64,000 nucleotides of DNA from Acidimicrobiia bacterium (GCA_038236695.1 JBBRZM010000004.1:24716-88715); one strand, 5' to 3'. Positions 3,324-45,593 are shown, counted from the first letter of the stretch. Notes: generated by a model not told the origin, from the sequence alone. Numbers and translations are program-made.

Positions 3324-3773
3324 GTGCGGACCTTCAGCCCCAAGCCTTCCGACATCGAGCGCGCCTGGCACGTCATCGACGCCGATGGCGCGGTCCTGGG
3401 CCGGGTCGCGACCGAGGTCGCCACGCTGCTGCGCGGGAAGCACAAGCCGACGTTTGCTCCGCATGTCGACAGTGGCGATCACGTGATCATCGTCAACGCG
3501 GCGAAGCTCGACATCGGACCACGCAAGGCCGCCGACAAGCGCTACTACCGCCACTCGGGATACCCGGGCGGGTTGCGCAGCGAGTCGCTCGAGCACCTGC
3601 TCGCGCGGTCCCCGGAGAAGGTCGTGCGGCTCGCGGTGAAAGGCATGTTGCCGAAAGGCCCGCTCGGTCGCCGGCTCATCAAGAAGCTGCGCGTCTACGC
3701 CGGCCCCACCCATCCCCACGCCGCCCAAATGCCCCAGCCCCGGCCGCTCACGTCGGCTCGGCGCGCCGGCTGA
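3324..3773 (+). CDS. rplM: 50S ribosomal protein L13
   Basis: [53 protein letters not shown] Shine-Dalgarno lies just upstream of GTG 3324, so the upstream ORF start 3279 was not used. Confidence 0.9.
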
Positions 3774-3790
3774 GCACCAGGAGATCTTTC

Positions 3791-4183
3791 GTGTCGAAGC
3801 CGCTCATCCAAACCACCGGTCGTCGCAAGGAAGCAGTCGCGCGGGTGCGGCTGCGTCCGGGGAGCGGCATCATCACCGTCAACGGGCGCACTTTCGAGGC
3901 CCACTTTCCGATTCTCACGCATCGTGTGATCGCGACCGAGCCACTGCGGCTCACGCAGACCGCCGACGTGTACGACGTCGACGCGACGATGGGCGGCGGC
4001 GGTGTGAGCGGGCAAGCGGGTGCATTGCGGCTCGGGATCGCGCGTGCGCTCGTCGCGCTCGACGACGAGCTGCGTCCACCGTTGAAGAAGGCCGGCCTCC
4101 TCACACGTGACGCGCGTGAGAAGGAGCGCCGGAAGTACGGGCTCAAGAAGGCTCGCAAGGCGCCGCAGTACTCCAAGCGGTAG
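3791..4183 (+). CDS. rpsI: 30S ribosomal protein S9
   Basis: GTG 3791 within the longer [17 protein letters not shown]... and the C-terminal [12 protein letters not shown]. Confidence 0.9.
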
Positions 4184-4265
4184 CGCACGCGGTGCTGCGC
4201 TGTCGGGCTGCCGTACGCGGCCGGGCGCGGCCAACTGGCGCCCGCACTGCACGAGAGATTGGCTC

Positions 4266-5615
4266 ATGACGCTGCGCTTCGGTACCGACGGTGTGCGCGG
4301 CGTCGCGAACGTGGAGCTCACGACGGAACTGGTGCTCGGACTCGGGCGCGCCGCGGCGCGAGTGCTCGGTACCGACGCTCCGTTCATCGTGGGTCGTGAC
4401 ACTCGGCGCTCCGGACCCATGGTCGAGGCCGCGCTCGTTGCCGGGTTGTGCGCCGAAGGCGCGGACGTCGAGCTCGTCGGGATCCTGCCGACACCCGGCG
4501 TCGCCGCGCTCGCGGCGGCGCGGCGAGCGCCCGCGGCAATGATCTCGGCCAGCCACAACCCGTTCCCTGACAACGGCGTCAAGCTCTTCGCGGCGGGGGG
4601 CCGAAAGCTCACTGCAGACGCGGAAGAGCGCGTCGAGATGGAGTTGGGGGCGCTGATCGGTTCGGGGCCGAAGCCCGGGGACTCCGGCACGGCCGTCGGC
4701 ACGGCACGACTTCTCCCCGGCGCGCGTGACGAGTACGTCACCAGCCTCGTCGGCGCGCTTGCCGGTCGAACGCTCGACGGGCTCCGCGTGGTACTCGACT
4801 GCGGTCACGGCGCGGCGTTCGAAGCTGCGCCGGAGGCCCTCCGCCGGCTCGGCGCCGACGTCGAGGTGCATAACGTGGAGCCCGACGGCACCAACATCAA
4901 TGCCGGCTGCGGGTCGACCGACCCGTTATCACTCCAGGCCGCGGTGGTCGCATCCGGTGCCCATGCCGGTCTTGCGTTCGATGGCGACGCTGATCGCGTG
5001 ATCGCGATCGACGAGCACGGCGACATCGTCGACGGCGACCACATGCTGTGTATCGCTGCCATTGATCTTGCGTCGCGTGACGCGCTGCGCGGCAATGCCG
5101 TCGTCGTCACGGTCATGTCCAACCTCGGGCTGCGACACGCGCTCACCGACCGGGGTATCGAAGTGGTGGAGACACCCGTCGGTGACCGCCACGTCATCAG
5201 CGCGCTCGACGAGCGCAAGCTCGCGCTCGGCGGTGAGCAGTCGGGCCACATCATCTTCGCCGACCACGCCACCACGGGTGACGGCACGTTGACCGGGATC
5301 ATGCTGCTCGATGCCATGGCCCGCACCGGCCGTCCGCTCTCGGCGCTCGCGGCCGTGATGACGTCGTTTCCCCAAGTGCTGCGAAACGTGCGGGTTGCCG
5401 ATCGAGCGACGCTCGATGCCGCGGCACTCGACACCGCGGTCGCCGCCAGCATCGCCGAGCTCGGTGACGGCGGTCGTGTACTCGTGCGGCCGTCGGGCAC
5501 CGAACCGGTGGTGCGAGTGATGGTCGAAGCCGCGTCTACGGGGCAGGCGGATCTGGTCGCGGCCCGCCTGGTTGACGCCGTCGAGCAGGCCTACGGCCGG
5601 CCGGCAACGTCGTAA
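4266..5615 (+). CDS. glmM: phosphoglucosamine mutase
   Basis: MTLRFGTDGVRGVAN N-terminus at ATG 4266. Phosphoserine loop ISASHNPFPDNG. Confidence 0.9.
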   Translation: MTLRFGTDGVRGVANVELTTELVLGLGRAAARVLGTDAPFIVGRDTRRSGPMVEAALVAGLCAEGADVELVGILPTPGVAALAAARRAPAAMISASHNPFPDNGVKLFAAGGRKLTADAEERVEMELGALIGSGPKPGDSGTAVGTARLLPGARDEYVTSLVGALAGRTLDGLRVVLDCGHGAAFEAAPEALRRLGADVEVHNVEPDGTNINAGCGSTDPLSLQAAVVASGAHAGLAFDGDADRVIAIDEHGDIVDGDHMLCIAAIDLASRDALRGNAVVVTVMSNLGLRHALTDRGIEVVETPVGDRHVISALDERKLALGGEQSGHIIFADHATTGDGTLTGIMLLDAMARTGRPLSALAAVMTSFPQVLRNVRVADRATLDAAALDTAVAASIAELGDGGRVLVRPSGTEPVVRVMVEAASTGQADLVAARLVDAVEQAYGRPATS

Positions 5616-21014: not shown

Positions 21015-21032
21015 CGAGTTGCGTCAACCCCT

Positions 21033-21081
21033 ACCGTTTGTGCAGAAGTGGTTCCTATGACGTCCGCTGGTGCACAAACGC
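21033..21081 (+). repeat. 49-nt conserved hairpin element, copy A
   Basis: ACCGTTTGTGCAGAAGTGGTTCCTATGACGTCCGCTGGTGCACAAACGC. The 10-bp arms CGTTTGTGCA/TGCACAAACG are inverted. 44/49 identical to copy B. Confidence 0.85.
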
Positions 21082-36460: not shown

Positions 36461-36463
36461 CCC

Positions 36464-36512
36464 ACCGTTTGTGCAGAAGTGGTTCCCTGAGCGTCCGCTG
36501 GTGCACAAACGC
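36464..36512 (+). repeat. 49-nt conserved hairpin element, copy B
   Basis: ACCGTTTGTGCAGAAGTGGTTCCCTGAGCGTCCGCTGGTGCACAAACGC, starting 4 nt after the icd stop. Confidence 0.85.
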
Positions 36513-37448: not shown

Positions 37449-38432
37449 ATGAGCTCGCCCGTCCACGTCACCGTCACCGGCGCGGCCGGCCAGATCGGCT
37501 ATGCCTTGGTGCACCGCATCGCGTCGGGTCAGCTGCTCGGTCCCGATCAGCCCATCGTGCTGCGCCTCCTCGAGATCGAGCCCGCCCTCCAAGCGCTCGA
37601 AGGCGTCGTCATGGAGCTGGAGGACGGCGCCCACCCGCTGCTCGAGGGGATCGAGGCTACGGCCGACCTGAAGCACGCCTTCGACGGTGCGTCATGGTGC
37701 CTGCTGGTGGGTTCGGTGCCCCGCAAGGCGGGCATGGAGCGCTCCGACCTGCTCAACATCAATGGCGGGATCTTCAAGCCGCAGGGACAGGCCATCAACG
37801 ATCACGCCGCGAGCGACGTGCGCGTGCTCGTCGTCGGCAATCCGTGCAACACCAATTGTCTGATCGCGCGCAGCAACGCCCCCGACGTCCCCGCCGACCG
37901 CTGGTTCGCAATGATGCGTCTCGACGAGAACCGGGCCAAGTCCCAGCTTGCGCACAAGGCCGGCGTCCGCGTGCGCCAGGTCACGAACATGGCGACTTGG
38001 GGCAATCACAGCGCCACGCAGTTCCCCGACTACGCACACGCACAGATCGACGGCATACCGGTGCCCGAAGTGATCACCGATACCGCATGGTTGCACGGGC
38101 CGTTCATCGAGACCGTGCAGAAGCGCGGTGCGGCAGTTATCGACGCGCGCGGCGCGTCATCTGCGGCGTCGGCCGCGCACGCCGCCATCGACTCGGTCAA
38201 CAGCGTCTGGCAGGCGACGCCCGAAGGCGACTGGCATTCACTGGCAGTCATGAGCCGCGGCGAGTACGGCGTGCCCGAGGGATTGCAGTTCGGGTTTCCC
38301 GTTCGCAGCGATGGCAAAAGCTGGAAGATCATTGAAGGTTTGGCGCACGACGGATTCGCCCGCGGGAAGCTCGCCGTCACGACCAACGAGCTCATCGCGG
38401 AGCGTGACGAGGTGCAAGCACTCCTCGGTTGA
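37449..38432 (+). CDS. mdh: malate dehydrogenase
   Basis: [17 protein letters not shown]-binding motif, then VGNPCNTN. Confidence 0.9.
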
Positions 38433-38538: not shown

Positions 38539-39030
38539 ATGGCGGACCTACGGTGGTGGCGACACGAGTCGCCGGTTGGTGATCTGGTTGTCGTAATGGG
38601 GGACAGCGGGTTGCGCAAACTGATCGTCGGCGGCGCTGTCGACGTCGACACGATCGACGGCGTCGCGTACCCCGAACGTGACAACGAGGTCGCGACCGAG
38701 CTTGACGAGTACTTCGCCGGCCGTCGTCGTCGCTTCACCATGCCGGTCGATCTCTCGTCAGTCGCAGCGCCGTTTCGCCGCACCGTCCTCGAGACGTTGT
38801 ACCGCGAGGTCGGATTCGGCGAGACCATCACGTACGGCGAGCTCGCCGCGCTCGCGAGACGGCCCGGTGCGGCGCGTGCCGTGGGTTCCGCGATGGCGAC
38901 CAATCCCATTCCGATCGTCGTGCCGTGCCACCGCGTGCTCGCTGCCGGCGGACATCTGGGCGGGTACGGCGGCGGCCTCGGCATGAAGCGAGGCCTGCTC
39001 GGCCTCGAAGGGGTCGGCATCGAGGGCTGA
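38539..39030 (+). CDS. ogt: methylated-DNA--protein-cysteine methyltransferase
   Basis: Active site IPIVVPCHRV. ATG 38539 inside the longer ORF. Confidence 0.85.
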   Translation: MADLRWWRHESPVGDLVVVMGDSGLRKLIVGGAVDVDTIDGVAYPERDNEVATELDEYFAGRRRRFTMPVDLSSVAAPFRRTVLETLYREVGFGETITYGELAALARRPGAARAVGSAMATNPIPIVVPCHRVLAAGGHLGGYGGGLGMKRGLLGLEGVGIEG

Positions 39031-39045
39031 GCCGGGGTCACGCGA

Positions 39046-39738
39046 TTGAATGGTGGCGTGAGCGACGAGCTTCCGCCTGCGACCCGCCGGGAACGCACCC
39101 TCGAGCTCGACCGGGTCGTCAACTTCAGTGACGGGGTCTTCGCAATCGCGATGACGCTGCTCGTGCTCAGTCTGCACGTGCCGCTCACGCTCGACACCAA
39201 GTACTCCGGTCATGCCCTGGACGAGCATCTGTGGCGAGAGTTCCACGATATGTTGCCGAACCTGTTCGGCTACGGGCTCAGCTTCTTCGTGATCAGCCGC
39301 ACCTGGCTTGCGCACCACCGCGCGTTCCGGGTAATCGAACGCATCGACCACACGTTCATCACGCTCAATCTCACGCTGCTCGCATTCGTCGCGCTCGCGC
39401 CGTTCCCGACCGAGGTGTTCGGCACGTATCCGCAGTCCCGCACGGCGACTGTCGTGTACGCGGCGAGCATCAGCGCGGTCAGTCTCATGTTCACAGCCCT
39501 CTGGCTGTACGCGGCGTACGGCGGTCGTCTCATCGTGCCCGGTACGCCGCGCGAGTTCATCGTGCACTCGACGCTGCGAGGTCTCAGCCTCCCCATCGTC
39601 TTCCTCGTCTCGATCCCGATCGCGTTGGGTGTCGGCCCGCCATGGGCCCAGTGGTCATGGACGCTGGTCGTGCCCGCGCGCATCGCGCTCGGGCGTCGGT
39701 ACGGTCGGATCACGCGTCTGGCCGAACGTTTGGGGTGA
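39046..39738 (+). CDS. TMEM175/DUF1211-family membrane protein (putative K+ channel)
   Basis: RVVNFSDGVFAIAMTLLVL signature and six hydrophobic segments. Confidence 0.7.
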   Translation: MNGGVSDELPPATRRERTLELDRVVNFSDGVFAIAMTLLVLSLHVPLTLDTKYSGHALDEHLWREFHDMLPNLFGYGLSFFVISRTWLAHHRAFRVIERIDHTFITLNLTLLAFVALAPFPTEVFGTYPQSRTATVVYAASISAVSLMFTALWLYAAYGGRLIVPGTPREFIVHSTLRGLSLPIVFLVSIPIALGVGPPWAQWSWTLVVPARIALGRRYGRITRLAERLG

Positions 39739-39809
39739 CTTGCGCCATTAACCGGCTGCGCGCGGCGGGGCGCGTTGGCAGCGCGTCCGCAGAGGGCGCA
39801 TGATGGAGT

Positions 39810-40760
39810 GTGACCGCCGAAGGCAGGAGCGCCATGATCGTCAGTACACCCGCCGACGAAAACCGCCACCGGGCGTCGGGCGAGACCTGGTTCAACGAGT
39901 CGTGGTACTTCGATTTCTCCCGGGCGGACGGCACCGGCGGCTACGTGCGGCTCGGCTTGTACCCCAACCAGCGGGTGGCGTGGTTCTGGGCCTACCTCGT
40001 GACGCCCGACGAGGGATTCATCGTCGTACGCGACCACGAGGTGCCGCTCCCCAAGGGCGATGCACTCGAAGTGCGGGCCGACTCGCTGTGGGCCGAGCTC
40101 GTGTGCGAGACGCCGATGGAGCACTGGGGCCTCGGGATGGAAGCGTTTGGTGTCCGCCTCGAAGAGCCGGCCGACGCGTACCGCGGCGAGATCGGCGAGC
40201 GGCTCCCGGTCGGACTCGACCTCGAATGGGAAGCCGTCACGCCCGTCTACGACTATCCCTATCCCGACGGTCATCTCGGCGCGCACTACGAGCACGCCGG
40301 GATCGTGCACGGAGAGCTCCTGATCGGCTCCGACCGCATCCCGTTCGAAGGGCGGGGCGAGCGCGACCATTCGTGGGGCGAGCGCGACTGGTGGCAATAC
40401 GGCTGGCACTGGACGGCGTTCCAAGTCGGTCAGGCGCTCGCGGTCAACTTCGTGCAACCCGACGGCGTCGATCTCGCGTTGGGCGCGGTGTGGCGCGTCG
40501 GCGACGAGGTCGAGCCAGTGACCGCCGCGCGCGTCGAGACGCACTTCGGGGCCCACGGCATTCCGACCGCGGCCCGTTACGTGATCAACCACGAGCTCGA
40601 AGTCGATGTCGAAGTGATCGCCGCCGCGCCGGTGCCGTTGACGGCACCCGACGGCCGAACCGGCGCGTTCCCGCGTGCGCTGTGCCGGTACACCACCGTG
40701 GAAGGCACCGGCACCGGCTGGGGTGAGTGGCTGCAGGTGGGTGAGCAGGCCGGAAAGTAA
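39810..40760 (+). CDS. conserved hypothetical protein (possibly CrtC/AttH-like beta-barrel)
   Basis: ETWFNESWYFDF and GERDHSWGERDW motifs. The assignment is tentative and the start is uncertain (ATG 39834 is an alternative). Confidence 0.5.
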   Translation: MTAEGRSAMIVSTPADENRHRASGETWFNESWYFDFSRADGTGGYVRLGLYPNQRVAWFWAYLVTPDEGFIVVRDHEVPLPKGDALEVRADSLWAELVCETPMEHWGLGMEAFGVRLEEPADAYRGEIGERLPVGLDLEWEAVTPVYDYPYPDGHLGAHYEHAGIVHGELLIGSDRIPFEGRGERDHSWGERDWWQYGWHWTAFQVGQALAVNFVQPDGVDLALGAVWRVGDEVEPVTAARVETHFGAHGIPTAARYVINHELEVDVEVIAAAPVPLTAPDGRTGAFPRALCRYTTVEGTGTGWGEWLQVGEQAGK

Positions 40761-40800
40761 TCAATGCGGCGCAGGCCGGGCCGGCTGCAAAGATGGCGTG

Positions 40801-41274
40801 ATGTTCAGCGGTCGAATCGTCGGTATCTATACCGCACCGGCGGCGGGCACGCCCATGGTCGGTCACGACGAGGTGCGCGCCATCGCCGGCGTCGGACTCG
40901 ACGGCGATCGCTACGCCGCGGGTACCGGAAAATACTCCGATCGCGGTGACCGTCGGGATGTCACGCTCATCGAACGTGAAGCGATCGCGGGCGCGGGCAT
41001 CGAATACGAACTCGAGTTGGCCGAGCACGAGACGCGTCGCAACCTGATCACCGAAGGTGTGCCGCTCAACCACCTCGTCGGCAACACGTTCCGTGTCGGC
41101 GACGTGGTGTTACGCGGGATCCGGCTCGCGGAGCCGTGCTCATACCTCGCCGGCCTGGTCGAGCGCCCCGGCATCTCGCGCGCACTGCTGCATCGTGGAG
41201 GCTTGCGAGCGGAAGTGGTGAACGACGGTGTGATCAACGTGGGTGACACCGTGGAACCAACGCCGAGGGTCTAG
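40801..41274 (+). CDS. MOSC domain protein
   Basis: MFSGRIVGIYTAPAAGTPMV...GVGLDGDRY...NLITEGVPLN...RLAEPCSYL. The stop TAG lies inside the CTAG at 41271-41274. Confidence 0.75.
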   Translation: MFSGRIVGIYTAPAAGTPMVGHDEVRAIAGVGLDGDRYAAGTGKYSDRGDRRDVTLIEREAIAGAGIEYELELAEHETRRNLITEGVPLNHLVGNTFRVGDVVLRGIRLAEPCSYLAGLVERPGISRALLHRGGLRAEVVNDGVINVGDTVEPTPRV

Positions 41275-41311
41275 ACCTGCGGGTTCACGGGTTGAGGTGA
41301 CAGATGGACCG
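41275..41311 (+). repeat. left terminal repeat (IR-1), includes a 32-mer identical to 43802-43833
   Basis: CGGGTTCACGGGTTGAGGTGACAGATGGACCG at 41280-41311. CTAG lies 16 nt upstream of the GTTGAGG core. Confidence 0.85.
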
Positions 41312-41451
41312 AAGCGCCGCGCGGCCCGCGTATCGCGCCGCGGCGAGACGTACACGTCAATGATCTGCCCGAACTGGTCGATGGCGCGGTACACGTAGCG
41401 CCACCGTCCGGCGACCTTCACGTAGGTTTCGTCCACGAACCAACGATCGGC
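41311..41451 (-). pseudogene. IS6-family transposase fragment (DDE region only)
   Basis: ADRWFVDETYVKVAGRWRYVYRAIDQFGQIIDVYVSPRRDTRAARRF matches the IS6/IS26-type DETYVKV...YLYRA.D motif. It is cut off at the IR-1 junction, with no N- or C-terminal parts. Confidence 0.7.
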
Positions 41452-42619
41452 AACCCCGGAGCGAGCCGATGAGACGCCGGATACCGCGACGGCGACCCGG
41501 GCGGGCGACCCGACCCGGCCGGCTCGGCGCGGTCCGCCGCCGCGACGGCGTGGAAGCCCCGCTCCGGCTCGACGGCGCCCGCGGGAGGCTCGATTGCGGC
41601 ACCGACCGTCGTCGGGCCGGCGGCCGGCGACGCCGACGCCGACGCAGCCACCAGTACATGGCCAGCGCGATGGGCACGCACACGGCCACGATTACCCACG
41701 GGCTGATGACGAGCATCCGCTTCGTGAGCACGATCTCCTTGGTCGCGCTCTCGGTCTTGCCGGGATAAACGATGTGGACTCGCAACGTGACGAATCCGAC
41801 CGGCCACGCCGGCTCGCCGACGACCTCGAAGGAGCGGGCTCGGCCAACGGGCAGCAGCGACTTCTCGATGCGCTGCTGCGTCGGTATCTTGCCACCGGGC
41901 CACGCGGTCGTGTCGTTCTCGCCCCAGAACCGCACCTGGGCGTGGCCGATGTTGCGGACCCGCAGCGTGCCGTCGATTTCGTTCCCGACCACGACGCTCG
42001 AGAGGTGGACGGGGCCAAGGCCGAAGCGCGGGACGCGAAGGCGGGCCGAGATCTTCCGCACGCGCGGCCCGGGGACGTCGATGGTGAAGAAGCCGCCGAT
42101 CTGGTTGATGAGAGTAACGCTGCCGCTGCCCGACTTCACCGGGCTGACCACGAACCCGATGAAGTAGAGGTCGGGGTCGATCCGGTCCGGCATCCTGACC
42201 GTGACAAAGACATCGTCGAAGCCCTGGGCCGGGACGGTCAGGTCGCCGGCCGGGAAGTCGACCCGCCCCTGCCACTTCGGGTCGGGCTTGGAGGTGACGT
42301 TGACCCGCCCGTCGTCACCGAAGTTGAGCCCGCGACCGATCATGGTGACGGTGACGGGTGCGTCGCCGGGATTGACGACCCGCACATGCACCTTCGACGT
42401 CTCTCCCGGGGCGATCGACACCGGCTCGGGCGGGACCGAGACCGCGAGCGGGCGGGGAGTCTTCGTGCCACTCGTCACGGGCGTAGGCGACGAAGCCGCG
42501 AGAGCGGACAGCGGCGTGCCCAGCAGCGCGCCGACGACTGTGAACGTGACGGCGAGAGCGGCCGCTCCCGAGACGAGCCGCGGCCGCCGCGAGCTTCTCC
42601 GCCTCCCCACCGCCCGCAC
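41357..42619 (-). CDS. membrane-anchored two-domain surface protein (DUF916/DUF3324-like architecture), 3' end probably non-native
   Basis: GTG 42619 lies 2 nt after the upstream stop. N-terminal signal/anchor, beta-rich domains (VSIAPGETSKVHVRVVNPGDAPVTVTM; LRVRNIGHAQVRFWG), and the TM helix ISPWVIVAVCVPIALAMYWWL followed by RRRRRRR. A ~100-aa Arg/Pro/Ser tail then runs into the IS6 fragment. Confidence 0.6.
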   Translation of the reverse strand: MRAVGRRRSSRRPRLVSGAAALAVTFTVVGALLGTPLSALAASSPTPVTSGTKTPRPLAVSVPPEPVSIAPGETSKVHVRVVNPGDAPVTVTMIGRGLNFGDDGRVNVTSKPDPKWQGRVDFPAGDLTVPAQGFDDVFVTVRMPDRIDPDLYFIGFVVSPVKSGSGSVTLINQIGGFFTIDVPGPRVRKISARLRVPRFGLGPVHLSSVVVGNEIDGTLRVRNIGHAQVRFWGENDTTAWPGGKIPTQQRIEKSLLPVGRARSFEVVGEPAWPVGFVTLRVHIVYPGKTESATKEIVLTKRMLVISPWVIVAVCVPIALAMYWWLRRRRRRRPPARRRSVPQSSLPRAPSSRSGASTPSRRRTAPSRPGRVARPGRRRGIRRLIGSLRGCRSLVRGRNLREGRRTVALRVPRHRPVRADH

Positions 42620-42621
42620 AG

Positions 42622-43638
42622 TCAGGTGTAGTTGGGGGTCGCGGTGTAGGTGACGGTGTCGGTAAACACCGCCGCCGGCACCGAGTAGTCGATCGCCACG
42701 CGGTTTGAGACCGTGATCGTGTCGGGAGTACCGCCGGTCGCGTTGGCCCGGCTGGCGACCTGCTCACCGACGCCGCTCACGTAGCCCGCGTACTTCGAGC
42801 CCGAGAACGCCGCGTCGGCCGTCGCGCCGGTCGCCGTGACCGCGTAGCCAAACTTGGGCGCGCCCGGCCATGTCACCGAGGCGGCCTTGTTGGCGGACAC
42901 ATCGGCGATGGTCGGCGTACCCGACGCCGTGCTCTGAAGGCCGGTGGCGAGGTCGTTCACCACCAGCGTGTAGCCCGAGTTGGCGTTGGTCGCCACGGTG
43001 AGGCCCACAGCCTGGCTCTGGTCCGCGAGTGCGGGCAGGCTCGGGTCCATGTCGAGCTCGAACGAGGTCGTGTCGATCGTGAAAGTCAAGCTCTTGGCGA
43101 TCGTCACGGTGATCGCGGTGTTGGTGGCCGCCATGACGACCGCGTTCGAGTTCGTCGGGCCGTCGATCACCGCCGCCGCCGCCGTCTTGGTCGTGATCGC
43201 GGTTGTGTAGCTGGCGGCAGCCGGGTTGGTGAGCCCCGAGAACTCGAGGTAGATCGGGATACCGATCGGGATGCTGACCGGGGCCGTCACGGTGTACGTG
43301 ATGGTGTTCCCGGCTCGAGCCACCGTCCCAGAGCCGATCCCGTAGTTCCTCACGATGACGGGCGTGCCGCCGAGCGTGCCGGCGGAGACAGTCATGGTGA
43401 TGAGACCGATTATGCCAGCCGTCGCGGTCTTGAACGAGTAGCTGTAGCTGACAGGGGTCGCGTTGGCCTGGTTGTTCGACACCGACCAGTTGACGGTGGT
43501 CAGCGCGGCCGCGTGGGCCGAGGGAGCGCTCAAGACAAGCCAGGACGACACGAGCGCGACCAGTACGAGCAGCGTGAGCCGCCGCCGACCGACCGGGCGT
43601 ACCGGACTGACCTGAGTGGCGTGAGTGGCGTGATTCAT
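42622..43638 (-). CDS. secreted Thr/Ala/Val-rich beta-type surface protein (WxL/SCPU-like, unassigned)
   Basis: ATG 43638 preceded by a GGAAGCGGAG Shine-Dalgarno. Signal peptide ...LVLSAPSAHA|AAL. No Cys. C-terminus FTDTVTYTATPNYT. Confidence 0.65.
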   Translation of the reverse strand: MNHATHATQVSPVRPVGRRRLTLLVLVALVSSWLVLSAPSAHAAALTTVNWSVSNNQANATPVSYSYSFKTATAGIIGLITMTVSAGTLGGTPVIVRNYGIGSGTVARAGNTITYTVTAPVSIPIGIPIYLEFSGLTNPAAASYTTAITTKTAAAAVIDGPTNSNAVVMAATNTAITVTIAKSLTFTIDTTSFELDMDPSLPALADQSQAVGLTVATNANSGYTLVVNDLATGLQSTASGTPTIADVSANKAASVTWPGAPKFGYAVTATGATADAAFSGSKYAGYVSGVGEQVASRANATGGTPDTITVSNRVAIDYSVPAAVFTDTVTYTATPNYT

Positions 43639-43796
43639 CTCCGCTTCCCTTCCGCGGCTCTGTTCACCGCGCCTTATGGCACGGGGCTTCCCTTTACATG
43701 GCAGGGAGCCTTAACTCTTTATCGGCCGGCCCCCGGGTGGACTGAAGCCGATTTGCGAGAAATCAACCGTGTGGTCCAGGTCGGCCAGCCCTCTAG

Positions 43797-43833
43797 CGCT
43801 TCGGGTTCACGGGTTGAGGTGACAGATGGACCG
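43797..43833 (+). repeat. internal terminal repeat (IR-2), same orientation as IR-1
   Basis: 32-mer identical to 41280-41311, preceded by CTAG at 43793-43796 with the same 16-nt spacing to GTTGAGG. Confidence 0.85.
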
Positions 43834-43836
43834 TGG

Positions 43837-44271
43837 TCATGCTGCTCGCTTGGGCCGGTGGGTGTCGAGGACTTGGCGGGGGGTGCGGACACGCATGAAG
43901 TCGCGGTGATTCTTGCGGTGATTCTTGCGGTGATTCTTGCGGCGGGTGATGTAGGTGATGAGCTGGTGACGGTTGAGGAGCTTCTGCACGCCACTCGCCG
44001 AGATTTGGAAGCCGACGACCCAGGTCGGCGTCGCGTTCGGCATCGCCGGAAACCTGCGGCCCTTGGGTATCAACGCGTCGAGCCTGTAGGCCGAAACCCG
44101 GGACCGTCACCGGTAGAACGTCGTACGCGACACACCGAACACTCGGCATGCTTCCGATACGGTCGTCGCCCTGGCATGTTCCAAGACGCGGACACGCCGG
44201 TGGTAGATGATCTCTGTGGGCGTCACGGTGATGGACTCCTTTGGGTCTGTGGAAGGAACCACAGGGTCCAT
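43837..44271 (-). pseudogene. IS481-like transposase remnant (frameshifted and deleted)
   Basis: MDPVV...VTPTEIIYHRRVRVLEHARATTVSEACRVFGVSRTTFYR then a stop at 44107. It continues in another frame: PKGRRFPAMPNATP...GFQISASGVQKLLNRHQLI. Confidence 0.6.
43903..43942. repeat. 12-bp tandem repeat x3.3 (GCGGTGATTCTT) inside the transposase remnant
   Basis: Read directly from the sequence. Encodes (RKNH)x3 on the minus strand. Confidence 0.9.
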
Positions 44272-44295
44272 CACCGGGCCCCCGAACTCGGGGAC

Positions 44296-44324
44296 CTGCA
44301 ACCTCAACTCGTAAACAGCAAGTA
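44296..44324 (-). repeat. right terminal inverted repeat (IR-R)
   Basis: The reverse complement TACTTGCTGTTTACGAGTTGAGGTTGCAG aligns with IR-1 and IR-2. It abuts CTAG at 44325. Confidence 0.7.
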
Positions 44325-45593
44325 CTAGACCGCCGCGTCGAAGCGCGGCCGAAGCGGCAGGCCACTGCGACCGCCATCCGGCTTCACTGCCAGCACCTGA
44401 TGCACCTGATTGTCCCCGCCCTCGAAGTTGACCGCGGACGCGGCCATGTAGAGCCGCCAGACGCGAGCCCGCGCCGCGCCGACCTCGGCGACCGCCTCGG
44501 ACCACTGCGACTCGAGATTGCGTACCCATGCCCGCAAGGTAAGTGCGTAGTGCTCGCGGAGGCTCTCGAGATGACGGGCCTCGAGGCCGGTGCGCTGGAT
44601 CGCCGTCACCACGGACCCGACTTCGTGGAGCTCGCCGTCGGGGAAGACGTAACTGTCGATGAACCCACGGCGGGCGAAGCGTGCCCTGCCCCTACGGTTG
44701 CCGTTCCACGGACGCGAGATGGCGTGATTGAGGAGCCGTCCGCCGGGTGCAAGTAACGCGTGGCACCGGTTGAAGTAGACCTCGAGTTGCTGGAGACCGA
44801 CGTGCTCGAACATGCCGATCGAGCTGATCGCATCGAACGGGCCGTCGCCAACGTCGCGGTAGTCCTGGAGCCGCACCTCGACCCGGTCGGAAAGGCCGAC
44901 TTCGGCGATGCGCTTCTCGGCCAGCTCGGCTTGGCGGCGCGACAGCGTGACCCCGACGGCTTCGACGCCGTGATGCTTGGCTGCGTGGAGCAGCATCCCG
45001 CCCCAGCCGCAGCCGATGTCGAGCAGGCGCATGCCCGGCTGTAGATCGAGCTTGCGGCTGATCAGCTCGTGCTTGTTGGCATGCGCGGCGGCGAGCGTGT
45101 CGGTGTCGTCGGTCCACACTGCGCAGGAGTAAGTGAGCGACGGACCGAGGACGATCCGGTAGAAGTCGTTGGACACGTCGTAGTGATGGGCGATCGCGGC
45201 GGCGTCTCGTTCTTTGCTGTGACGGCGACCGTGCAGCCGCGCCTCTTCCGGTGGTGCCGGAAGAGGCCGCAGACCACCGACACCGACGAGCTTGCACGCG
45301 GCCAACCACTGGTCTTTCGACAGCTTGAAGGAGGACAGCTGGTCACGCAGCCGGAGGGCGGCGAAGATGTCGCCTTCCACGTCGAGGTCGCCGGCAACGT
45401 ACGCGCGCCCGAAGCCGAGCTCTCCGGGGGAGGTGACGATGCGTCGCATCGCGTCGGGAGATCTGACGACGATCGCGACCGGCGCGTGTTCGGGGCCGCT
45501 GCGGCTGCCGTCGTAGGCACGGAACTCCACTGGGAGGTCAGGACCCAGAATCTCTTCGATTAATGACGCGATCGGTTGCCGGTTCAGCCGCAC
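44325..45593 (-). CDS. cfa: cyclopropane-fatty-acyl-phospholipid synthase family SAM methyltransferase
   Basis: LLDIGCGWGGMLLHAAKHHGVEAVGVTLS SAM motif and the typical CFA/mycolic-acid MT length. The stop CTA lies inside the CTAG at 44325. Confidence 0.85.
   Translation of the reverse strand: MRLNRQPIASLIEEILGPDLPVEFRAYDGSRSGPEHAPVAIVVRSPDAMRRIVTSPGELGFGRAYVAGDLDVEGDIFAALRLRDQLSSFKLSKDQWLAACKLVGVGGLRPLPAPPEEARLHGRRHSKERDAAAIAHHYDVSNDFYRIVLGPSLTYSCAVWTDDTDTLAAAHANKHELISRKLDLQPGMRLLDIGCGWGGMLLHAAKHHGVEAVGVTLSRRQAELAEKRIAEVGLSDRVEVRLQDYRDVGDGPFDAISSIGMFEHVGLQQLEVYFNRCHALLAPGGRLLNHAISRPWNGNRRGRARFARRGFIDSYVFPDGELHEVGSVVTAIQRTGLEARHLESLREHYALTLRAWVRNLESQWSEAVAEVGAARARVWRLYMAASAVNFEGGDNQVHQVLAVKPDGGRSGLPLRPRFDAAV

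Follow-up and report, generated by a model that had tools for sequence, protein, structure and literature searches.

TnRErm46/ISRe46 of Rhodococcus equi is a cargo-carrying transposon of the IS481 family of insertion sequences (IS). It targets CTAG, is flanked by NCTAGN repeats and supplies, through one of these repeats, the TAG that ends parB (PMC6794481). The norm in this family is a 6-bp NCTAGN duplication (PMC6794481, PMC2516522). Here, we analyze a stretch of 64,000 nucleotides from an Acidimicrobiia bacterium (GCA_038236695.1, JBBRZM010000004.1:24716-88715; hereafter the window, to which all positions refer), in which an insert of about 3 kb separates two convergent genes, one encoding a MOSC-domain protein and the other a cyclopropane-fatty-acyl-phospholipid synthase (cfa). 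The insert contains two surface-protein genes and three IS481-type ends. Two of these, a left and a right terminal inverted repeat (IRL and IRR), belong to an internally deleted IS copy, and the third is a solo right end (IRR') on the far side of the cargo. We read the whole segment as a probable non-autonomous transposon.

TnRErm46 is the closest described case. In both elements, IS481-family ends surround passenger genes in an actinobacterial host, the direct repeat contains CTAG, and a TAG within it serves as the stop codon of a neighboring gene. However, TnRErm46 has a working transposase, one pair of ends, a 6-bp NCTAGN repeat and resistance genes, whereas the window element has a deleted transposase, three ends, the 8-bp repeat of its own IS group, a surface-protein cargo and terminal repeats unrelated in sequence.

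IS481 of Bordetella pertussis and ISLxc2/ISLxx4 of Leifsonia xyli resemble the Acidimicrobiia IS group to which the window ends belong, having a DDE transposase of about 330-345 aa encoded in a single open reading frame (ORF), a length of 1.0-1.1 kb and a CTAG target that is duplicated (PMC3053399, PMC2516522). They differ in their 6-bp duplication and, in some cases, in a transposase stop codon that is the target TAG, as in ISLxc2/ISLxx4 (PMC2516522); in contrast, the Acidimicrobiia group has an internal TGA and duplicates NNCTAGNN.

Three further kinds of element invite comparison. Mobile insertion cassettes (MICs) and derivatives resembling miniature inverted-repeat transposable elements are, like the window element, non-autonomous and equipped with IS terminal repeats; they optionally carry passenger genes and use a transposase acting in trans. 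A classical MIC, however, is limited to a single pair of ends and lacks a transposase remnant, whereas we find a 524-bp deleted IS and an extra solo end. ISEcp1-type units skip the proximal right end, use a distal right-end sequence and take along the intervening genes, much as proposed below. ISEcp1 (IS1380 family) does so with weakly similar surrogate ends, whereas the distal end in the window is a genuine, near-identical copy of IRR. Finally, the insert recalls compound transposons and the pseudo-compound transposons of IS26/IS6, in that IS-derived sequences enclose its cargo and it contains an IS6-family fragment. Compound transposons have two complete IS copies; the window element instead has the 524-bp deleted IS on one side and a 35-bp solo end on the other. 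The IS6 piece comprises 143 bp from the interior of a gene, lacks ends and cannot have taken part in the final move.

This logic is already known from TnRErm46 and further elements of the IS481 family, and our analysis leaves the current understanding unchanged. The locus would provide an example of a dead IS and a stray second end that package neighboring genes and move them among uncultured Acidimicrobiia genomes, with the exact states before and after the insertion both at hand.

The empty site in two relatives

An initial annotation of this DNA, made from its sequence, had predicted that related genomes would join the MOSC and cfa orthologs at an empty site, and such sites were found. The cfa protein had no exact record under either the window ORF or P0001, and the sites were reached instead through two cfa homologs, P0002 (on contig L002) and P0293, a member of the 90% cluster of the window cfa (on contig L021). 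The Joint Genome Institute (JGI) metagenome contig L021 is 97.6% identical over 3.7 kb, at the nucleotide level, to the window from which the insert and one repeat copy have been removed. Its junction reads ...ccaacgccgagggTCTAGACcgccgcgtcgaagcgcgg..., with a single CTAGACC, and the gene calls of cfa and MOSC overlap by 4 bp. This is exactly the predicted empty site, ...CCGAGGGTCTAGACCGCCGCG..., and the empty-site octamer stands in the context ...gagggTCTAGACcgcc... in this contig. In L002, a contig of 1.98 Mb with 89% nucleotide identity, whose cfa protein is an 89%-identical homolog of the window cfa, the two genes are likewise convergent with a 4-bp overlap. Its junction is ...gggcgaCTAGACCgccgcg..., and the IS core is absent.

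The ancestral site is the palindrome GGTCTAGACC with overlapping stop codons, and the segment is shown to be an insertion relative to the two relatives. CTAGAC occurs once at the empty site and twice in the window. Because the empty site of both L021 and L002 has a single CTAGACC, the duplication is real and not a chance match. The insertion postdates the divergence (2.4%) of the window and L021 lineages.

The two empty sites also bear on the opposite polarity, in which the 3 kb would be ancestral at this locus and precisely excised in the relatives. We consider this very improbable. Just two relatives with a direct cfa-MOSC junction have been examined, which leaves some room for it, but both have a clean single CTAGAC and overlapping stop codons, so that two independent exact excisions would be needed. 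Moreover, the insert has transposon ends and an outlying tetranucleotide composition, and the cargo cassette is found in unrelated contexts elsewhere.

Both neighboring genes were said to end in GTC TAG and to be undamaged, which agrees with the ORF ends. MOSC ends in GTC TAG at 41269-74, with its stop codon (TAG, 41272-74) inside the left target copy. On the minus strand, cfa ends in GTC TAG at 44330-44325, its stop codon lying opposite 44325-27 within the right target copy. The 157-aa MOSC product has an exact match in Logan contig L033, and the L021 ortholog is of the same length; a 100%-identical database protein exists for cfa (P0001).

An independent assembly of SRR19962014 in Logan supports the structure. 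Contig L033 corresponds to window positions 38917-41309 and reproduces the junction of MOSC, CTAGAC and the IS end, while contig L001 corresponds to 41282-43831 and reproduces 2.55 kb of the interior. As the left junction and the interior are both reproduced by independent contigs, an assembly artifact is unlikely. The least probable of all explanations, and one we regard as close to negligible, is a chimera in which the insert was misjoined at short repeats. It could draw on the source contig, which is probably metagenome-assembled, and on the Logan graph, which breaks at a 32-mer shared by two of the IS ends. Both Logan contigs stop inside this 32-mer, in keeping with a repeat that exceeds the word length of a de Bruijn assembler, taken as k=31. 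A misjoin is contradicted by L033, which continues without interruption from 38917 past the MOSC stop codon and CTAGAC into the IS end, and by the coherence of the structure, with outward inverted ends of one IS family and a duplicated target that is seen empty in relatives.

Two more distant cfa relatives, L019 and L020, were uninformative about the site, cfa being adjoined by other genes. In L019, where cfa is 77% identical, a gene of the dienelactone-hydrolase/peptidase-S9 type lies between cfa and MOSC (3757-5063), and a hairpin with CTAG in its loop follows the cfa stop codon. The boundary between cfa and MOSC seems to be variable.

Three ends and the unit that probably moved

The 32-mer CGGGTTCACGGGTTGAGGTGACAGATGGACCG occurs in the window at 41280-41311 and 43802-43833 only (search with up to 3 mismatches; 0 occurrences expected by chance). 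Its core, GTTYACGRGTTGAGGT, is present three times, twice on the plus strand and once on the minus strand at 44301-44316, against an expectation of 0.01. The initial annotation had described this direct pair and the imperfect inverted third copy at the positions where we find them. It had also noted a fixed spacing, and the distance from CTAG (41271-74, 43793-96 and 44325-28) to GTTGAGG is indeed exactly 16 nt at all three ends. The outermost flanks contain CTAGACC at 41271-77 and 44325-31.

The outer ends form an outward-facing inverted pair of one IS family, with intact terminal repeats. Their flanks match, whereas those of the inner pair differ (CGCTAGAG versus GTCTAGTA), in agreement with what had been proposed; the inner octamer shares only CTAG with the outer flanks and probably persists from the donor site. 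It follows from the unmatched flanks of the inner mini-IS that the 524-bp copy did not insert alone.

An inverted pair of ends brackets a segment that both relatives lack and at whose two junctions target bases are duplicated; together, these features constitute the signature of DDE transposition. As the flanks of the inner pair are unrelated, the joint use of IRL and IRR' is the simplest account. We assign a probability of roughly 78% to the reading that 41277-44322 is a non-autonomous transposon bounded by IS481-family ends and inserted as a whole segment via IRL and the distal IRR'. That the whole 3 kb moved as a unit, as had been proposed, is the most parsimonious reading; no second copy of the unit was found.

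Read in the direction of the transposase (minus strand), the segment consists of IRL, a transposase gene without its core, IRR, the surface-protein cassette with its upstream region, a scrap of an IS6-family gene and IRR'. An IS481-family transposase would have paired IRL with the distal IRR' and not with the proximal IRR. This enzyme could have been provided in trans by an intact copy elsewhere, or by the 524-bp copy before its decay. The palindrome GTCTAGAC, in which MOSC and cfa have overlapping TAG stop codons, would then have received the whole segment. Repair of the staggered cut would have duplicated CTAGAC, each gene keeping its GTC TAG ending and neither being damaged. The junctions of the IS6 scrap with the cargo and with IRR' would be deletion scars, most probably formed in the donor before the move. 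We infer the movement as a single unit, the transposase in trans and the deletions in the donor from this arrangement.

Several observations weigh against such a movement. Neither a second copy of the 3-kb unit nor a donor locus was found: the cluster of cargo gene 1 in the protein collection has one member, and a scan of the metagenomes with a 29-mer taken from the 32-mer gave 0 matches. Nor did we find an intact IS whose ends are identical, the best intact one having about 80% DNA identity (for the host, 64 kb was inspected). The duplication measures 6 bp, or 7 bp with an ambiguous C, as opposed to the 8 bp usual in the IS group, and a TA beside IRL is unexplained. GC content and GC content at third codon positions (GC3) do not set the insert apart from its flanks. 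Finally, the transposase may have been either already dead or still alive at the time of insertion.

The outer duplication and the unrelated inner flank are also predicted by a history in two steps, which we judge unlikely. A plain IS would have been inserted at the CTAG between MOSC and cfa with its duplication, and incoming circular or plasmid DNA carrying an IS copy and the cargo would later have recombined with it. Most of the left IS copy and of the incoming DNA would have been lost through deletions that spared IRR', the IS6 scrap and the cargo, and the 3 kb would never have transposed whole. The IS6 scrap and the truncated IRR' show that deletions occurred in this DNA, the likeness of IRR and IRR' at 34 of 35 positions is what two copies from a single IS lineage would display, and deletion-derived solo IS ends are also found in L003, L016 and L024. 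However, this history needs an insertion, a recombination and at least two deletions in situ within 2.4% divergence from the relative with the empty site, and no plain IS occupies the MOSC/cfa site among the relatives examined. In addition, what the outer IRR' retains is precisely a full terminal repeat, the feature that a transposition substrate requires.

The deleted IS was delimited by alignment to an intact IS of 1125 bp in L014. It aligns with positions 1-307 (82%), 384-438 and 997-1125 of this IS, while 308-383 and 439-996 are missing. Compared with L014 and L012, its nucleotide identity is 77-82% over 1-307 and 997-1125 and 80-89% over 384-438, which establishes the homology. The two internal deletions took the DDE core, and since the catalytic domain is absent, the 524-bp remnant is non-autonomous. 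The transposase remnant, in which N-terminal helix-turn-helix domains are detected, also has an in-frame TGA (44107-09) where relatives carry Trp. With the DDE core deleted and this TGA in frame, the insert is not an autonomous unit transposon. Beside the large deletion, the remnant contains a 12-bp tandem repeat (GCGGTGATTCTT, 3.3 copies, 43903..43942), which encodes RKNH repeats.

IRL and the inner IRR each agree with the family consensus at 30 of 35 positions. IRR' agrees with the family IRR consensus at 29 of 35, its aligned part covering IS positions ~1087-1116 only, and differs from the inner IRR by 1 of 35 nt. The tip of IRR' faces outward to MOSC, and its internal truncation lies at 41311. 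We considered that both 32-mers might be cut at the same position and rejected this, as the sequence past the inner 32-mer (43834 onward) is natural IS interior when compared with L003 and the intact copies. The outer-left IRR' is the only truncated end.

The IS6-family fragment corresponds to model positions 66-112 of 202; it is homologous to IS6-family transposase genes and has no IS6 ends or terminal repeats. The initial annotation had missed it. It is fused to the truncated cargo gene 2 on one side and to the solo IS481-type end on the other. The coordinates of all features are collected in Table 1.

Table 1. Coordinates of the insert, its parts and the adjoining genes in the window
Feature	Position	Strand	Basis or remark
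MOSC-domain gene, 157 aa	40801..41274	+	Pfam PF03473, E 3e-09
Left target octamer, GTCTAGAC	41269..41276	.	Identical to the empty-site octamer
Whole insert, ~3.05 kb	41277-44322		Bounded by IRL and IRR'
Solo right end IRR', 35 nt	41277..41311	-	Complete ~27-bp terminal repeat plus 8 nt
IS6-family transposase gene fragment, 143 bp	41312..41454	-	PF13610, E 1.7e-17; NF033587, E 1e-18
Cargo gene 2	41357..42619	-	84% nucleotide identity to L017; length comparison with homologs
Cargo gene 1, 338 aa	42622..43638	-	462 homologs; AlphaFold model, pLDDT 81.6
Cargo upstream region	43639..43790	-	L017 blastn alignment ends 25 nt upstream of gene 1
Inner IS-end octamer, CTCTAGCG	43791..43798	.	CGCTAGAG in transposase orientation
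Deleted IS481-family IS, 524 bp	43799..44322	-	Alignment to the intact 1125-bp IS of L014
IRR of the 524-bp IS	43799-43833
Transposase remnant of the 524-bp IS	43837-44262
IRL of the 524-bp IS	44296-44322
Window IS ends			CTTCGGGTTCACGGGTTGAGGTGACAG / CTTGCTGTTTACGAGTTGAGGTTGCAG
Right target copy, TACTAGAC	44323..44330	.
cfa (cyclopropane-fatty-acyl-phospholipid synthase), 422 aa	44325..45593	-	Pfam PF02353, E 1.8e-93

The parent IS group and its target

Scanning the genome collection with a 21-nt degenerate pattern that covers both end types gave 14 loci. Twelve of them come from metagenome-assembled genomes (MAGs) of Acidimicrobiia and Actinomycetes, and in these loci the terminal repeat lies straight after CTAG and 2 nt; the other two, matches in Pseudomonas (L006 and L015) with no CTAG or IS context, were treated as chance. 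A scan of metagenomes added 11 contigs with the same terminal repeats beside CTAG. Seven of the MAG loci have a matching inverted end at a distance of about 1.09 kb, with CTAG beyond it, which gives elements of 1117-1125 bp with the tips CTTCCn...nGGAAG. The imperfect terminal repeat of this group is about 27 bp long (CTTCCnGnnCACGnGTnGAGGTnnCAG).

The element of L010 is 1121 bp long and has a single ORF, an uninterrupted frame of 357 codons with a product of 345 aa. This transposase matches the IS481 model NF033577 with 215.4 bits (E 1.1e-63) and the IS3 model with 103 bits, and contains helix-turn-helix and rve/rve_3 domains. In a tblastn search of 72,556 plasmids, its best matches all carry an IS481-family annotation, with about 35% identity and alignments that cover more than 90% of the length. 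As the score is 9 bits under the NCBI curated cut-off of 224, we call the group a divergent IS481-family clade. The assignment of the window ends to the IS481 type is supported by these intact relatives of 1.12 kb, which have the same terminal repeats and encode an IS481-matching transposase. In this group, the transposase stop codon is a TGA about 50 nt inside IRR.

The frames are broken in other MAG copies of the group, which may reflect decay or long-read errors. Solo or truncated ends were observed in L003 (1731-1806), L016 (1828-1864) and L024 (5816-6036), and also in L030 and L032. Given such ends in other Acidimicrobiia and Actinomycetes genomes and metagenomes, decayed copies are common. 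A protein search for the parent with the reconstructed transposase remnant yielded fragments only, at 64-78% identity. The suggested search for a parent IS thus recovered the group with these termini, but not a parent whose ends are identical to those in the window.

CTAG adjoins every copy of the group with visible flanks. Perfect 8-bp direct repeats of the form NNCTAGNN flank five of them (L007, L010, L013, L014 and L025). Imperfect repeats were seen as well, with matches at 7 of 8 positions (L008 and L022), 6 of 8 (L005, L026 and L011) or 5 of 8 (L023). The group is a previously undescribed IS481 subgroup of Acidimicrobiia with a normal duplication of 8 bp, and its definition by these ends and this target is of value for annotation.

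When the family-defined tips (CTTCC...) are applied to the window, the flanks are GTCTAGAC (41269-76) and TACTAGAC (44323-30). In place of GT, the right copy has TA (44323-24) directly beside IRL, and these two bases are not derived from the target. The certain duplication is the 6 bp CTAGAC. Of the 7-bp duplication CTAGACC that had been claimed, the last base, C41277, doubles as the conserved base with which the IS tip begins. A CTAG target with a short duplication, as originally expected, is in line with publications on the IS481 family (PMC6794481, PMC2516522).

An 8-bp duplication with one substitution in each copy had been suggested by GACTAGAC in the 89% relative, L002. This idea was rejected because the closer relative, L021, shows that the target was GTCTAGAC; two adjacent substitutions within a lineage diverged by 2.4% are unlikely. 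A similar "6+2" pattern is found in L005 and L026, where six bp match and the difference is confined to the dinucleotide beside one tip. In L008 and L022, one base of the tip-adjacent dinucleotide differs. A tentative explanation, which we hold to be possible though somewhat doubtful, is that the mismatch is mechanistic and not mutational, a 2-nt spacer from the donor flank being carried over, for example from the circle junction of a copy-out/paste-in pathway. The TA at 44323-24 would then be a fossil of the donor site.

CTAG is strongly depleted in the window, with 10 sites as against 187 expected from base composition (~19-fold), and three of the 10 belong to the element. Six of the 10 are stop codons of frames with coding-type GC content at codon positions 1, 2 and 3, two of these six being the copies of the duplicated target. 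CTAG holds a stop codon on both strands, and given its rarity, an element that seeks CTAG will therefore often land at gene ends. The landing between two stop codons follows from the target preference and from the few CTAG sites, mostly at stops, and calls for no special explanation. The harmlessness of the insertion is explained as well, since the duplication hands each neighboring gene a stop codon. Among the other copies of the IS group, 4 of 13 left flanks lie on the TAG of a coding-like frame. Where a flanking gene has its TAG in the CTAG (L008, L014, L022, L026 and the window cfa), it lies on the IRL side, is co-directional with the transposase and reads into the IS. Such a TAG was seen in 4 of 13 left and 0 of 8 right flanks, numbers too small for significance.

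Cargo, composition and other features of the window

The pair of cargo genes is also present in many metagenome contigs of Actinomycetota, including L017 and L018. The cassettes of these two lie in unrelated chromosomal contexts, without IS ends nearby. L017 has 84% DNA identity to window positions 41462-43663, and the homology ends near 41462. The two genes can be flagged as horizontally mobile.

Cargo gene 1 has 462 homologs, all of them hypothetical proteins from Actinomycetota metagenomes. Its product has a signal peptide and, in the AlphaFold model, two β-sandwich domains resembling the immunoglobulin (Ig) fold. The nearest solved folds in Foldseek are cohesins, MSCRAMM/Gram-positive adhesins, pilins and BslA, all with low TM-scores, and for this reason we label the protein only as a secreted Ig-like surface protein.

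Cargo gene 2 encodes a membrane-anchored protein, in which a signal peptide and a β-rich ectodomain are followed by a transmembrane helix at the C-terminal end and a tail rich in Arg; a single-sequence model was unusable (pLDDT 40). It is 417-420 aa long, compared with 386-389 aa in its homologs. The last ~9 native codons are lost, and the frame reads through into the IS6 scrap to a stop codon at 41357. Pfam and NCBIfam gave nothing significant on cargo function, the best hints being SCPU (E 0.072) and, over the transmembrane helix, DUF5671. A suspected resemblance to the WxL/DUF916 surface clusters of Firmicutes was unsupported by the family scans.

The upstream region travelled with the cargo operon. 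It is dissimilar to that of the closest native cassette (L017), and no sigma-70-like promoter was found in it; the promoter and terminator scans were uninformative.

The tetranucleotide distance of the insert is 0.265, as compared with 0.160 ± 0.018 (maximum 0.212) for other 3-kb windows, of which 0 of 110 reach 0.265. The comparison of insert and flanks proposed in the initial annotation thus sets the insert apart by tetranucleotide usage and not by GC or GC3, which are alike. The deviation is consistent with a foreign origin from a similar high-GC donor. An unusual amino-acid composition and the non-coding scraps may contribute to it.

Elsewhere in the window, a 52-nt sequence occurs at 21030-21081 and 36461-36512 with 88% identity and contains the inverted repeat GTTTGTGCA...(26 nt)...TGCACAAAC. 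The ORF just downstream of the first copy starts in a way that we take to be like GMP synthase. The repeat has no matching Rfam family and could function as an operator or RNA element. A scan of the whole window against Rfam at gathering thresholds gave no match, the tRNA family included; ARAGORN places a tRNA-His gene at 37968-38041.

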